A DNA stretch of 64,000 bases from Bdellovibrionales bacterium (lineage in GTDB: Bacteria > Bdellovibrionota > Bdellovibrionia > Bdellovibrionales > UBA1609): contig JBFWVI010000003.1 of the NCBI GenBank assembly GCA_050246815.1, forward strand, positions 32,001 to 96,000, written 5' to 3'. A model generated the notes under the pieces. That model was not told where the DNA came from, ran no database searches, and saw nothing but the letters and a program-made list of their open reading frames with translations. Made by a program: the position numbers and the translations under genes. This document shows, in pieces, positions 4,414 through 32,382 of this stretch; within the stretch, counting starts at the first letter, position 1; each line of letters begins with the position of its first letter.

Positions 4414-6042
4414 CTATTTTTTGGCTGTGACTGGCGTTAAGGGTGAGCTTTTCATCAAGTACAATTGTTGAACAATACCAAAGACCGTGCTGATAAAGAT
4501 ATAAAGCGTCAATCCGCTGGGCAAGGCCAGCATAAAGACGGTCATGATCAGTGGCATGAACATCAAGATTTTTGCTTGCATGGGATCCGCCGACGAAGGT
4601 GTAAGTCTCATTTGGATGAACATGGTGGCGCCCATCAAAATCGGCAACACGAAATAAGGATCCTTAAAACTCAGATCATGAATCCACAACATAAACGGTG
4701 CTTGATAAAGCTCCACGCTGTGGCCAAGCACTTGATATAGCGCAAAAAATACCGGGATTTGCATCAAAACGGGTAAGCAACCACCAACGGGATTCACCTT
4801 GTACGTCTTGAACAGCTGCAACATCTCTTGGTTTAAGCGGGCCTGATCATCTTTGTAACGGGTCTTTAGATCTGCGATCATCGGCTGAATGACCTGCATC
4901 GCTTTCATCGAACGAAACGACATCACATTGAAGGGCAAAACCAAAAAACGAACCAAGATGGTCAGTAAAATAATCGCAATGCCCCAATTGCCGGTCACCT
5001 CATGAAACCATTTCAGCGCACTCAAGATCGGTCGGCCCAAAAGAGCGAAAAAGCCAAAATCGACCACACCGATCAAACTTTCATCCACTGTTCTTAGCAG
5101 CTGAAGATTTTTAGGACCCATAAAGGCGGTGTACTTAAGCTGCATGTTGTCGCCACGATTCAACAATGAATGGCTGATGCTGGTCACCACTGTTTTTTTG
5201 CTGGCGCTAACTTCAGTTTTAAGTTCTGGACGCACGTCAGAACGGTCCACCAAAGCTTGAGTGAAATACTGTGTGCCTAAAGCGGCCACTTGCATTTTAT
5301 CAACGCGCACACTGAGGTCTTGATCTGGCGCTAAATGCAATCGTTCAGAACTTTCTGATCCTAAAGCATACGCTTCTTGACGCTCAAAGGTCGGCGCCAA
5401 AAAGCTACCACCCTCAAAATGCATCAGGGGATCCACCATATATGTAGTCAGTCCCAAAAAAGAATCGCTTTGCCCCTGCACTTGAACTTCGGTGTCGATA
5501 CGATATTTGTTTTCGTCCATCACCAAGGTTTTCACGACCTCAACACCGGCGGCACGGGCCCGGCCGACATAATGTGTCTCAGAAACCTTTTCGATCGTGA
5601 AATTTAAAGGCGCACGCCGCCCAATAAGCTCAGTGGCGAAGGGCAGCCGTCCTTCGACCTCAGTACCAATTTTAATCGGCACGCCCTGGCGGTCATGGTA
5701 GTTCTTAAGCTCAAAATCTTTAAGCCCCATCCCCCAAGACGAGATTTTAAAAGACCATGTCGTGCCCGTGATAGCCACTGTCTGCTCGGGTGTGGCGTTG
5801 TCCGCCGCAATTTCATCGTTCTTCGCCTGCGATGCGGTCGGTACAGCTTCACTGACGGTGCCGGTGATCGCCTCTGTCGCGCCTTGAGTTTGAGCCGCGC
5901 CGACTTGTTGGGCTTGAGTGGGTTTATGTTGGTTCGGATATTTTTTTTGCAGATGAAACTGCCATCCCAACCACACAATGGTGGTGATGATGATCGCCAG
6001 CAATGTCTTTTGATCGAAAAAACTTTGTTTAGGCTGCTTCAT
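4414..6042 (-). CDS. yidC: Membrane protein insertase YidC
   Basis: GNWGIAIILLT, NPVGGCLP, QIPVFFALY, WIHDLS..DP, PSGLTLY. Confidence 0.97.
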   Translation of the reverse strand: MKQPKQSFFDQKTLLAIIITTIVWLGWQFHLQKKYPNQHKPTQAQQVGAAQTQGATEAITGTVSEAVPTASQAKNDEIAADNATPEQTVAITGTTWSFKISSWGMGLKDFELKNYHDRQGVPIKIGTEVEGRLPFATELIGRRAPLNFTIEKVSETHYVGRARAAGVEVVKTLVMDENKYRIDTEVQVQGQSDSFLGLTTYMVDPLMHFEGGSFLAPTFERQEAYALGSESSERLHLAPDQDLSVRVDKMQVAALGTQYFTQALVDRSDVRPELKTEVSASKKTVVTSISHSLLNRGDNMQLKYTAFMGPKNLQLLRTVDESLIGVVDFGFFALLGRPILSALKWFHEVTGNWGIAIILLTILVRFLVLPFNVMSFRSMKAMQVIQPMIADLKTRYKDDQARLNQEMLQLFKTYKVNPVGGCLPVLMQIPVFFALYQVLGHSVELYQAPFMLWIHDLSFKDPYFVLPILMGATMFIQMRLTPSSADPMQAKILMFMPLIMTVFMLALPSGLTLYIFISTVFGIVQQLYLMKSSPLTPVTAKK

Positions 6043-6954: not shown

Positions 6955-6963
6955 TTATCCACA
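6955..6963 (+). promoter_or_regulatory. Perfect DnaA box upstream of dnaA (likely autoregulation)
   Basis: TTATCCACA in the rpmH-dnaA intergenic region. Confidence 0.8.
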
Positions 6964-7019
6964 TTTTAAGCTAAGTATTGCAAACAGAATAGGCAGCTTA
7001 CTTTTTGAGGGGGCATCGC

Positions 7020-8426
7020 ATGAATCATGAGGACTTCTGGGCGCAGGTTAAACACAACCTCAAGTCCAAGAACCTCAACAATAAACCTCTGCAAATGTGG
7101 TTCGAACCGACTTGCTTGGTGGATGTTGAAACCCGTCAAAGTGGTGCTTGCTTTCGTTTAGGCGTGCCAACGGAACTACATAAGTATTGGATTTCACAGA
7201 ATCTTTTAGATCGTATCTGCTCAGAGATTTCGGCTCTCTATGCTCAAGCGTTTCAGGTGGAAGTGGTGGTCACGGGCGCCAATGAACCTGCGGCTAATGA
7301 GGTCGGTCAGTTAGAACTCGAGGCCTCTGTAACCTCCCAAACACAGGCTTCTGAATCCCGTGCCTGGCCGCAAACGACGGGGAATACCTATCAACGTGAT
7401 GGAATTAACAGCGATTACACCTTTTCCACCTTTGTGGTTGGGCGAAATAACGAATTTGCCCATGCGGCCTGCTTTAATGTGGCTGAAAACCCTGGGGGCA
7501 AGGTGAATAACCCCCTATTCATTTGTGGGCCGACCGGCATGGGTAAAACCCACTTGCTGACCGCTGTGGGCAACCATATTCGCCAAAAATTCCCCGAAAC
7601 CCGTATCAACTATGTCAGTGCGGAACGTTTTTTAAATGAATGTATTTCCAGTATCCGCCGTGGCGAAATGGATAAATTTCGTAACCGCTACCGGGATAAC
7701 TGCGACATTCTGCTGATGGATGACATTCAAATCTTAGGGCGTGGAGAAGCCGTTCAAGAGGAGTTCTTTCATACGCTGAACAACTTCTTCGAAAAAAGTA
7801 AACAGGTGGTCGTGGCCTCTGACCGGATGCCAAAAGACATTAAGGGTCTAGAAGATCGTATTCGCACCCGTCTTGAATGGGGTCTTATCGCGGATATTCA
7901 AATGCCAGACATCGAAACCCGTGTGGCCATTTTGAAATACAAGGCCGAACGACGAAGTATTCCCTTGGTGAACGAAGTTGTGGGCTATATCGCCCGCATT
8001 TCCAAACGATCAATTCGTGAACTCGAGGGCAATCTGAACAAGCTGAAAATGTACTCAGAGCTGCAAGGTGTTCCACTTTCTTTGGATCTCGCGAAGCGGG
8101 TATTGGCCCATCATGACGACGTGGCCACCATCACGATCGAAGAGATTCAGCGGTTAGCATCAGAACACTACCAAGTTCGCCTGCCTGACCTAAAGTCGAA
8201 AACACGCACCAAGCCTCTTGTCACGGCTCGTCAAGTGGCCATGTACTTAGTTAAAAAACACCTCGATAAGCCACTGGTTGAGATCGGTCGTGCCTTTGGA
8301 GGCAAAGACCACACCACGGTCATCAACGCTTTGCGTAGGATTGAGAATCAACTGCATAAAGACCCTGAAATTAAGAAAGATGTCGAAGAGTTAGAGGGGC
8401 GTATCCACAACATCACAGGGGTGTGA
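7020..8426 (+). CDS. dnaA: Chromosomal replication initiator DnaA
   Basis: NPLFICGPTGMGKTHL, DDIQ, EEFFHTLN, RELEG, FGGKDHTTV; ATG at 7020 after GAGGGG. Confidence 0.98.
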   Translation: MNHEDFWAQVKHNLKSKNLNNKPLQMWFEPTCLVDVETRQSGACFRLGVPTELHKYWISQNLLDRICSEISALYAQAFQVEVVVTGANEPAANEVGQLELEASVTSQTQASESRAWPQTTGNTYQRDGINSDYTFSTFVVGRNNEFAHAACFNVAENPGGKVNNPLFICGPTGMGKTHLLTAVGNHIRQKFPETRINYVSAERFLNECISSIRRGEMDKFRNRYRDNCDILLMDDIQILGRGEAVQEEFFHTLNNFFEKSKQVVVASDRMPKDIKGLEDRIRTRLEWGLIADIQMPDIETRVAILKYKAERRSIPLVNEVVGYIARISKRSIRELEGNLNKLKMYSELQGVPLSLDLAKRVLAHHDDVATITIEEIQRLASEHYQVRLPDLKSKTRTKPLVTARQVAMYLVKKHLDKPLVEIGRAFGGKDHTTVINALRRIENQLHKDPEIKKDVEELEGRIHNITGV

Positions 8427-8625
8427 ATAGAGCATGTGGAAAACCCTGTGGGCAAATGTGGGGAAGAAAATGTGGATGCGCCTGTGTGTGCATAATTCAC
8501 TAGAATTAACGGATCTTTTCCGCTACTTAATCCACTGGGAAAATGCAGTTAAAACAAAAGGTTAAATAGATAAGGCCGATATACCGTCGCCTACTACGAC
8601 TACTAGTTTTATATTAAATAAAGAG
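8401..8625. other. Replication origin oriC (dnaA-dnaN intergenic)
   Basis: Degenerate DnaA boxes GTATCCACA 8401, TGTGAATAG 8422, TGTGGAAAA 8435, TGTGGGCAA 8447, TGTGGGGAA 8457, TGTGGATGC 8471, TGTGCATAA 8487, TAATCCACT 8528; DnaA-trio-like CTACTACGACTACTAG 8591-8606 then AT-rich run. Confidence 0.85.
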
Positions 8626-8663
8626 ATAGAGAATATAGGGAACTTATTGGATGAGGGGATCAA

Positions 8664-9794
8664 ATGAAAATCAAAATCGATAAGCAAGATTTTGTAGACC
8701 TGATTGGGCGCGCACAAAACATCGTTGAAAAAAGAAACACCATGCCTGTCTTGGTGAATGTTTTGTTGGATGCGCAAGGAGATTTTTTGCAAGTCTTCGC
8801 CACAGATCTTGAAGTGAGCCTGACCGATCAAATGCCCGCCGAAATTATTCAACCGGGTAAAGTGGTGGTCAACGCGCGCAGCCTTTTTGATATCATCAAA
8901 GAACTGCCCGAAGGCCAAGTTCAGTTAGAAAAGAAAGAAAACAACTGGTTAAGAATCACTCAGAATAAAGCCTTGTTTAATATCGTCGGCATCAGCCCGG
9001 ATGAGTATCCGGTGTTCCCCACATTCTCGACGAAAGATTTTGTTGTTGTTGAAACAGAGATGCTTCGCGAGATGATTGAAAAAACGATCTACAGTGTTTC
9101 GACGGACGAGACCCGATACCATCTGAACGGGGTCTTTTTTGAAAAACAGATGGACAAAGATGGCGTCAGTTATCGCATGGTGGCTACCGATGGCCATCGC
9201 TTGAGTCTGATCGACCGCAAAACCAAAGGGGATATGTCCGCATCTATCGGGAAAAGCCCGACTCAAGGTGTGATTATTCCGCGCAAAGGTTTGCATGAAC
9301 TTCGAAAGCTTCTGGATAACGCTGGGGAAACCGTGGATATGGCGATCGAAGGGTCGCAGTTGATCGTTCGTTCAAGCAGTGCCGTGCTGATGGTTCGTCT
9401 GATTGAGGGGAAATATCCCAATTATCAACAGCTTATTCCACAAAACCTAAGAGAAAATTTGTTGGTCAATCGCGCCATGCTTTTGAGTTCGCTCAAACGG
9501 GTGTCGCTTTTGTCGAATGCGAAGTCTCGCGGTGTGACTTTGAATTTGTCCAAAGGGAAAATGGAAATCACCTCGAACAATCCAGAGCTGGGCGACGCCA
9601 AAGAAGAAATCGAGGTGGATTACACCGGTCGAGATATGAAAATAGGTTTTAATGCGCGCTATATTTTGGAAGTGCTCACCAGCATGAACGAGGATTTGGT
9701 ACAAATTGAATTTAACGATCAATTGTCGCCGGGTCTCGTACGTCCGCACAAAGACAAGTCGTACACTTGCGTCGTTATGCCGATGCGGATTTAA
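8664..9794 (+). CDS. dnaN: DNA polymerase III beta sliding clamp
   Basis: ATDLE, VATDGHRL, RLIEGKYP, GFNARY, VVMPMR. Confidence 0.98.
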   Translation: MKIKIDKQDFVDLIGRAQNIVEKRNTMPVLVNVLLDAQGDFLQVFATDLEVSLTDQMPAEIIQPGKVVVNARSLFDIIKELPEGQVQLEKKENNWLRITQNKALFNIVGISPDEYPVFPTFSTKDFVVVETEMLREMIEKTIYSVSTDETRYHLNGVFFEKQMDKDGVSYRMVATDGHRLSLIDRKTKGDMSASIGKSPTQGVIIPRKGLHELRKLLDNAGETVDMAIEGSQLIVRSSSAVLMVRLIEGKYPNYQQLIPQNLRENLLVNRAMLLSSLKRVSLLSNAKSRGVTLNLSKGKMEITSNNPELGDAKEEIEVDYTGRDMKIGFNARYILEVLTSMNEDLVQIEFNDQLSPGLVRPHKDKSYTCVVMPMRI

Positions 9795-31773: not shown

Positions 31774-31804
31774 TTATGCACCCTCACCCACAGACTTATC
31801 CACA
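31774..31804 (+). promoter_or_regulatory. Extra-origin DnaA-box cluster
   Basis: TTATGCACC 31774-31782, TCACCCACA 31784-31792, perfect TTATCCACA 31796-31804, co-oriented. Confidence 0.6.
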
Positions 31805-31971
31805 ATTTGCTGGATTTAGGGGCATTTTACTGGTCCTTGGTCTAGACATTTTGCAGCAATTTAACCAAGAAATGTCGCAGCAAGAGTCTAGCTCGTAGGA
31901 CATCGCGAACGCATCTAAGATCCACTTCACTGATCACAGCCAAAGGCCGAAATAATAAAACGAGGTGCACC

Positions 31972-32214
31972 ATGCGGCGCATTGGCGATCTTATGACTGA
32001 TTTAGGTTTCAACAAGGATTCAGACGAAGACACTCAAAAAGCATTTATTCGCCACTTGGTTAGGGCGGCCAATGTTTCTCAGTTTCAAAGAAAAACCAAC
32101 AAGAACTCAAACGAACCGACACAACTGAGTTTCGATTTTGAAAAAGCAGAAGGCGCGTCGCCAGAAGACCACCTGCCTCCCACGACCAAAGTCGGGAACA
32201 AGCAAGTCGGCTGA
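31972..32214 (+). CDS. Small hypothetical protein with beta-clamp-binding-like motif QLSFDF
   Basis: GAGG RBS at 31962-31965, ATG, 80 aa filling the sdhB-subtilase gap. Confidence 0.75.
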   Translation: MRRIGDLMTDLGFNKDSDEDTQKAFIRHLVRAANVSQFQRKTNKNSNEPTQLSFDFEKAEGASPEDHLPPTTKVGNKQVG

Positions 32215-32382
32215 CACCTGTAAACAAAAAATAAAGATTTATTGTTTTTTTGTTAGCAAATAAAAATCCCCTTGGTACCATTTTGGAACTGAAACGGGTG
32301 ACTGGCCGAAGGACTCGGCGCGAAACCACGGATGGGAAGAGTTCGCCCGCAACATACTCAATGGATGGGTATAGGGGGATAA

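Follow-up and report, generated by a model that had tools for sequence, protein, structure and literature searches.

A conserved Bdellovibrionales microprotein with a predicted DnaN-binding motif and a FliA-type promoter

Introduction

Several small bacterial proteins act on the peptide pocket of the sliding clamp. SocB from the SocAB system of Caulobacter and RipA from the RipAB system of S. pneumoniae are small clamp-pocket toxins linked to ClpX(P) (PMC12795458, PMC8138137). The same pocket is occupied by Hda, the protein of the RIDA pathway, and by other hexapeptide ligands (QLSLPL, QLVLGL, QVELEF), which share a motif of the form Q-aliphatic-x-hydrophobic-x-hydrophobic. Hexapeptide and QL[SD]LF clamp motifs have been treated as separate classes, with an invariant Q, an aliphatic residue at +1, and an aromatic residue at +3 as the signature of clamp binding; on some clamps, hexamers are described as 10- to 20-fold weaker binders (bioRxiv 10.64898/2026.05.27.728225). 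Outside the origin, datA and DARS are small conserved clusters of DnaA boxes. An IHF site is required at datA, which promotes ATP hydrolysis. Of the three boxes of DARS, I and II point in opposite directions (PMC6868365).

In Bdellovibrio, how replication is held while cells hunt and then restarted inside prey is stated as an open question in a 2023 review, according to which B. bacteriovorus has no known initiation regulator (PMC11318664). Restart after prey entry is reported to take 74 min in aged cells and 23 min in newborn cells, and DnaN is present throughout the cycle and diffuse in attack phase (PMC6606864). Here, we describe a small gene from a member of the Bdellovibrionales (GenBank assembly GCA_050246815.1, contig JBFWVI010000003.1, positions 32,001 to 96,000) and compare it with these systems. 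We refer to the whole 64,000-nucleotide stretch that was analyzed as the window.

Results

The small gene is a real, lineage-wide microprotein gene. In the window, it lies between sdhCAB and a subtilase gene, and the order sdhB, small gene, subtilase is also the usual one across the family. Because dnaA-dnaN occupies 7005-9794 and a cluster of DnaA boxes is found at about 8401-8495, the locus and the likely origin are about 23 kb apart. When we re-checked the letters of the window, every coordinate that a sequence-only reading had assigned to the open reading frame, the motif, the boxes, the promoter, and the ribosome-binding site proved exact (Table 1). The same reading had called the frame an orphan, which was wrong: 59 of 60 candidates proved to be family members, and 417 cluster representatives matched at an E value of ≤0.001.

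Table 1. Features of the small-gene locus and its predicted partner, in window coordinates
Feature	Position	Strand	Basis or remark
DnaA-box triad, co-oriented, spacing 0/10/22 bp	31774..31804	+	about 23 kb from origin
Box 1, TTATGCACC	31774-31782	+	2 mismatches to TTATCCACA
Box 2, TCACCCACA	31784-31792	+	2 mismatches to TTATCCACA
Box 3, TTATCCACA	31796-31804	+	0 mismatches
Second promoter, TTAACC-N19-GTCTAG, likely ECF (RpoE-like) sigma	31861..31891	+	conservation
FliA (sigma28)-type promoter, CTTCAC ... GCCGAAAT	31925..31953	+	TCAC at 31927-31930, N15, GCCGAAAT at 31946-31953; start predicted at 31960
GAGG (ribosome-binding site)	31962-31965	+	re-check of window letters
Small gene, 80 aa	31972..32214	+	orthologue of B. 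bacteriovorus Bd0027; family and synteny evidence
Helix-loop-helix, residues 4-38	31981..32085	+	conserved core of protein
QLSFDF, hexapeptide-type clamp-binding motif (predicted)	32122..32139	+	residues 51-56
Basic and small-residue C terminus	32200..32211	+	KQVG here; KKAVS, KKAI, KKTGS in relatives
dnaN (beta clamp), predicted partner	8664..9794	+	pocket residues conserved

Across a sample of the phylum, a profile search detected the gene in 75 of 102 genomes from 12 families of the window's order and class, with a single match per genome in nearly all carriers, and in none of 298 other genomes of the phylum. It was not found by this search in the remaining 27 of the 102 related genomes. 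With a richer profile, the gene was recovered from 0 of 29 genomes of the order, chosen mostly as earlier misses, and from all four further genomes of the class. No diverged copy was hidden at the sdhB locus, as judged by profile and motif at 27 loci with 1.5 kb of flank. We also considered whether loss of the gene was tied to loss of FliA and ruled this out, since fliA was kept in 28 of 29 gene-less genomes. Titled relatives belong to the Bdellovibrionales or Pseudobdellovibrionaceae almost without exception. In named genomes, a single-protein search gave no match, whereas an alignment-based search did. The frame behaves as coding sequence, with a pN/pS of 0.33 over 29 N-terminal codons (pS being near saturation) and a Shine-Dalgarno-like word ahead of the gene in 90 of 96 loci. 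There was no convincing family match in Pfam, NCBIfam, or PHROG (the Pfam-type scan covered 59 members), no homology to solved structures in the PDB or to phage families, and no RNA family listed for the stretch.

In B. bacteriovorus HD100, the gene Bd0027 is found in the same place, with the same length class and promoter, and is annotated as a hypothetical protein. It is tabulated as a hypothetical gene of 252 nt between sdhB and the subtilase gene (PMC3627812), and a family member of 252 nt from B. bacteriovorus YOA24 is preceded by a promoter identical in every letter to the one printed for Bd0027; the start site lies 13 nt ahead of the ATG. Table S2 of the same study gives Bd0027 a mapped start (35 reads) and the entry "FliA site: yes," and the tables list RPKM values of 1224 in attack phase and 112 in growth phase, or about 11-fold enrichment. 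This ratio is similar to that of fliA (990 versus 104). The order of the two RPKM columns is our own reading, taken from the values for dnaA (4/224) and fliA (990/104); by that order, the transcript is also present in growth phase. The orthologue thus combines a promoter resembling TTAAG-N16-CCGATA, a mapped start, and attack-phase enrichment, the features by which the FliA regulon is recognized, and the FliA-type attack-phase transcription that had been proposed from sequence is borne out by the tabulated data. The mapped start lies 8 nt past CCGAAA. Identical spacing at this locus leads to 31960, in agreement with the start near that position that had been anticipated.

Taken alone, none of the DNA motifs at the locus is rare, and their weight comes from conservation. 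The whole genome has 40 copies of TCAC-N15-GCCGA and 331 of GCCGAAAT, so that a single motif is weak evidence. The FliA -10 pattern precedes the small gene in 78 of 96 loci, above the control counts (23 of 95 for an upstream stretch; 27.8 for shuffled sequences). The weak -35 element resembles the CTTCAG of other promoters flagged for FliA (Bd1007 and Bd2486; PMC3627812). The FliA site and the attack-phase data are thus already tabulated in that study but have drawn no discussion of Bd0027. In the openly accessible full-text literature, Bd0027 appeared in one unrelated paper, with no described function, motif, or partner, and no description of a Bdellovibrio sliding clamp-binding or DnaN-binding microprotein was found. 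Neither Bd0027 nor the control Bd0002 was present among the supplementary files searched for PMC10627809, which makes that data set uninformative here.

A second promoter, which the sequence-only reading had overlooked, lies farther upstream. The pattern TAACC-N18/19-GTC precedes the gene in 75 of 95 loci (0.69 in shuffles), with a spacing that is sharply 18 or 19. It also precedes an ECF sigma gene (G000:C123:363-968) in all 30 of the fetched orthologues (38 matches; 0.15 in shuffles). The strict form has nine sites in the genome, six of them intergenic and one directly before the ECF sigma gene, and other sites stand ahead of unrelated genes. Since ECF factors typically have self-promoters, the pattern is likely the consensus of this factor, which is probably Bd0743, judged by length alone (201 versus 206 aa). 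Bd0743 is reported as constitutive, and the Bdellovibrio ECF sigma factor is described as having no E. coli-like consensus (PMC3464611). In the openly accessible literature on Bd0743, there was no description of a system of this kind. The ECF-type promoter may account for the growth-phase transcript of the small gene.

The candidate ECF regulon comprises the ECF sigma gene itself (G000:C123:320-968; L147) and sites at G000:C3:417, C39:4525, C1:38995, C88:4283, and C142:2522. Some precede frames that we take to be DksA/TraR- and PhaR-like, and several precede uncharacterized genes. Between the two promoters, CATC words are enriched (window 31901-31915; positions -115 to -40 across the family), with 149 occurrences compared to 31 in shuffles. 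They are present in 76 of 96 loci, where they often abut the FliA -35 element, and are possibly an activator site or an extended -35.

The protein consists of a hairpin, a linker, a motif, and a tail, with little else. Within the hairpin, G12 and F13 are invariant, and N14, A24, F25, and L29 are conserved in at least 90% of members. The AlphaFold2 model has a pLDDT of 88-93 over residues 1-30 and a tail of low confidence. Neither family scans nor this model revealed an enzyme or DNA-binding domain that could serve the motif as cargo, which we counted in favor of competition for the clamp pocket. Structure searches with Foldseek (best E value, 9) and VIA (best Z score, 3.5) are uninformative either way for a two-helix hairpin, and matches in the ESM Atlas were confined to the family's own cluster. 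At the C terminus, the basic and small-residue pattern was found in its strict form in 51 of 96 family proteins versus 34 of 3,117 genome ORFs, and in its loose form in 62 of 96 versus 185 of 3,117, with the pattern having been defined post hoc, after inspection of the data. By sequence, this end appears to resemble a MuA-type ClpX degron, for which the degron tabulated in PMC8138137 served as reference.

Conservation of the predicted clamp-binding motif had been a key expectation of the sequence-only reading. Of 151 distinct proteins, 150 have Q[LM]x[FLM]; the remaining one is a truncated frame of 34 aa. It sits 35-79 residues past the LGF anchor, with a linker of varying length. Retention of the motif is not a by-product of motif-based selection, because all 10 checked loci with a tblastn match to the N-terminal part alone also carry it. 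The motif codons vary freely, with a pN/pS of 0.24. Among the 151 proteins, the common forms are QLSFDF (32), QLSFDP (31), QLSFDA (11), and QMSFDF (10), and the sixth residue is something other than F in about one-third of members. Q[LM][SA]F[DE]F does not occur in any of the 3,117 ORFs of at least 90 aa from the same genome. QLSFD departs from the pentamer consensus QL[SD]LF, and only rare members read QLSLF or QLDLF. As a hexamer (Q-aliphatic-x-L-x-L, conserved and in a flexible region), the motif fits, with F at both hydrophobic positions.

Co-folding with the DnaN dimer placed the motif in the peptide pocket, as had been proposed, with a score of 0.68 compared to 0.00 for the best control. 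Of 157 solved pairs, 116 attain the pass mark that was used, as do 2 of 215 mismatched ones. The agreement of contacts was ≥52%, the pLDDT of the partner was ≥49, and residues 48-61 contacted DnaN T175, G177, H178, 252-257, and M372-I376 (including M372-R375). The N-terminal hairpin had no confident contact with DnaN. Because this is the textbook pocket, the pass may reflect resemblance to solved clamp-peptide complexes, and occupancy of the DnaN pocket by QLSFDF is accordingly a prediction of the model.

The DnaA-box triad is conserved in part of the family. Counts of TTWTNCACA in the window (8 versus 6.6 expected) are unremarkable, and the triad is the sole cluster with a perfect box among 14 listed three-box clusters (defined by ≤2 mismatches and ≤45 bp; 4 of the 14 are overlapping windows at the origin). 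A perfect box was found at -320 to 0 in 21 of 95 loci, against 0.18 for shuffled sequences and none of 98 downstream stretches, and the 31-letter triad pattern occurred in 17 of 81 family genomes, at one site each, with none in reversed controls. Boxes with ≤1 mismatch were absent from the 700 nt upstream of the gene in Bdellovibrio-titled loci (L008, L017, and L036) and in most complete-genome loci (L052-L077). The boxes, whose conservation the sequence-only reading had proposed to test, are conserved above chance, with a perfect box in a minority of loci.

Its claim that DnaA controls the gene is not supported, and we rejected it from the distribution of the boxes: triad and gene are separable in both directions. 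The gene stands without a perfect box in 72 of 93 loci, and 6 of 27 gene-less genomes keep a perfect box 67-202 nt past sdhB, in 3 cases facing a convergent gene. Where the triad occurs, the small gene is present in 14 of 17 loci, and the two remain together despite a change of upstream gene (L005, L016, L039-L041, L047, and L048). The gap from the box to the ECF -35 element ranges from 18 to 88 nt (57-58 nt at 7 of 15 measurable box loci), so the boxes are not co-conserved at a fixed distance from the promoter, as they would be at a DnaA-regulated one. Based on conservation, the triad is real and under selection, and it is likely a DnaA-binding site independent of the gene rather than its operator. 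Like datA and DARS, it is a small, conserved group of DnaA boxes located outside oriC; unlike the opposed boxes of DARS, its boxes are all co-oriented.

Several related arrangements were observed. At three gene-less loci (L185 in G016, L198 in G172, and L200 in G247), the box cluster persists, flanked by sdhB and a convergent alpha/beta hydrolase gene, and the small gene and the subtilase gene are both gone from that place; in L185, the cluster overlaps the last codons of the hydrolase gene. The origin cluster includes three boxes at 8435-8465 (- strand) whose 0/10/22 spacing matches that of the triad at 31774. A perfect box at 6955-6963, just upstream of dnaA, is consistent with autoregulation.

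Discussion

The evidence leaves an even chance, in our estimate, that the small gene encodes an attack-phase microprotein, likely short-lived, that competes for the DnaN pocket and damps replication without being an essential gate. A FliA-type promoter would drive its transcription in attack phase, as seen for the orthologue; to judge by its conservation, the ECF-type promoter is a likely source of additional basal or stress expression. A ligand of the pocket would have a target at that time, given the published presence of diffuse DnaN in attack-phase cells. The lack of an Hda in this genome and of a known initiation regulator in B. bacteriovorus (PMC11318664) also speaks for this reading. 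The motif, carried on a flexible linker, is predicted to dock in the pocket used by the polymerase; the helical hairpin might oligomerize or bind a second partner and so confer avidity, which is a guess. Finally, the basic C-terminal end would likely let ClpXP remove the protein after prey entry. A bolder version is tentative: that a FliA-driven, ClpXP-cleared "clamp cap" fills the DnaN pocket while cells hunt and determines the speed of replication restart after prey entry. If true, the clamp cap would be the first named replication regulator of Bdellovibrio, clamp blocking would be used for cell-cycle arrest without a toxin-antitoxin system, and a separate origin-proximal DnaA sink would adjoin the gene in some lineages that lack Hda.

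Published data also bear on this reading. Insertions in EP01_RS11955, the syntenic gene, had W values of 1.31-1.43 in four conditions in a host-independent strain, within the spread of the rows for neighboring genes (PMC6561027). We ruled out that W values of 1.3-1.4 mean faster growth upon loss, because the neighbors range similarly. The gene is dispensable in that data set. Tolerance of insertions without fitness loss weakens the idea of an essential gate, as does the fact that no sampled genome from other families of the phylum has the gene. In a life-cycle proteome, the row for DnaN is nearly flat (8.1-8.6), and Bd0027 is absent from the tables searched (PMC12546842). Bd0743 is missing from them as well, so small or rare proteins may escape this proteome.

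The predicted microprotein has in common with SocB and RipA its small size and, if the docking is right, its action at the clamp pocket. It differs from SocAB and RipAB in lacking an antitoxin or adaptor gene that is conserved next to it (its neighbors are sdhB, the subtilase gene, and variable genes), in being retained vertically at one locus, and in having expression that follows the life cycle; a 93-nt call, Bd0028, had no counterpart noted in family loci in an unsystematic look. Since there is neither a conserved antitoxin neighbor nor any sequence likeness that we found, we have not filed the protein as a member of a toxin-antitoxin system. With Hda and the other hexapeptide ligands it shares the motif type and the predicted pocket, in a protein of 80 aa without an AAA+ or polymerase domain. 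Identity with Hda was ruled out by the lack of an AAA+ domain and of a family match. Identity with DciA (DUF721) was ruled out as well, because PF05258 is absent in 59 members and the DciA of this genome is a separate gene.

Blocking is not the only use to which a clamp motif could be put. The motif could instead anchor the protein on the clamp while the hairpin recruits a second factor (DnaA, RNA polymerase, a protease, or a repair enzyme); the protein would then tether rather than block. The hairpin is conserved like the motif yet lacks a confident clamp contact in the co-fold, the linker varies in length as tethers do, phages Mu and T4 are described as having clamp-dependent late transcription, and no Hda scored over the cut-off in this genome, which is thus without that link between clamp and DnaA. 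Against this, no partner was identified, a conserved neighbor of a fitting kind was not found at family loci, and the near-flat level of DnaN argues against degradation of the clamp (PMC12546842). We regard an adaptor as somewhat unlikely. More doubtful is the suggestion that the motif is structural or serves another partner, and that the protein acts in attack phase or under stress with no part in replication. The imperfect fit to the clamp consensus, the fact that the DnaE motif of this genome is a pentamer (QSSLF), and the sharing of the ECF-type promoter with unrelated genes would all suit that suggestion. The invariant Q, aliphatic +1, and aromatic +3 nevertheless form the published clamp-motif signature, canonical pentamers occur among the variants, and the co-fold puts the motif in the canonical pocket, so that we consider it improbable.

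The full module proposed by the sequence-only reading, in which DnaA acts at the triad to control the gene and the gene is a gate that arrests attack-phase replication, is the least probable, and we think it very unlikely to be correct. The adjacency of triad and gene in most triad loci, their pairing through changes of the upstream gene, and the recurring 57-58 nt gap between box and promoter speak for it. Most gene loci nonetheless lack the perfect box, some gene-less genomes retain it, the gap is otherwise variable, and the gene is dispensable in the Tn-seq data. The question of replication arrest is directly testable at this locus, because it involves a single nonessential gene in a model species, a motif that can be point mutated, and existing DnaN reporter strains. 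The analysis also yields two testable by-products: a consensus that a Bdellovibrio ECF sigma factor may recognize and, outside the origin, a conserved triad of DnaA boxes.

Some minor observations concern the surroundings of the gene and the wider genome. At window 32272-32287, before the subtilase gene, lies TTGGTACCATTTTGGA, which we take to resemble a sigma54 -24/-12 site. The 300 nt downstream contain its core in 48 of 96 loci, and the core is retained where the small gene has been lost (L184 and L186). ARAGORN made two tmRNA calls on one contig of G000, one with the tag GNTEHALAA and the other probably spurious. A box-like triad with 0/10/22 spacing at about 5830-5862 of G000:C85, which may be due to chance, lies within the end of an ORF that is presumably LexA-like, upstream of a presumably ImuB-like ORF.
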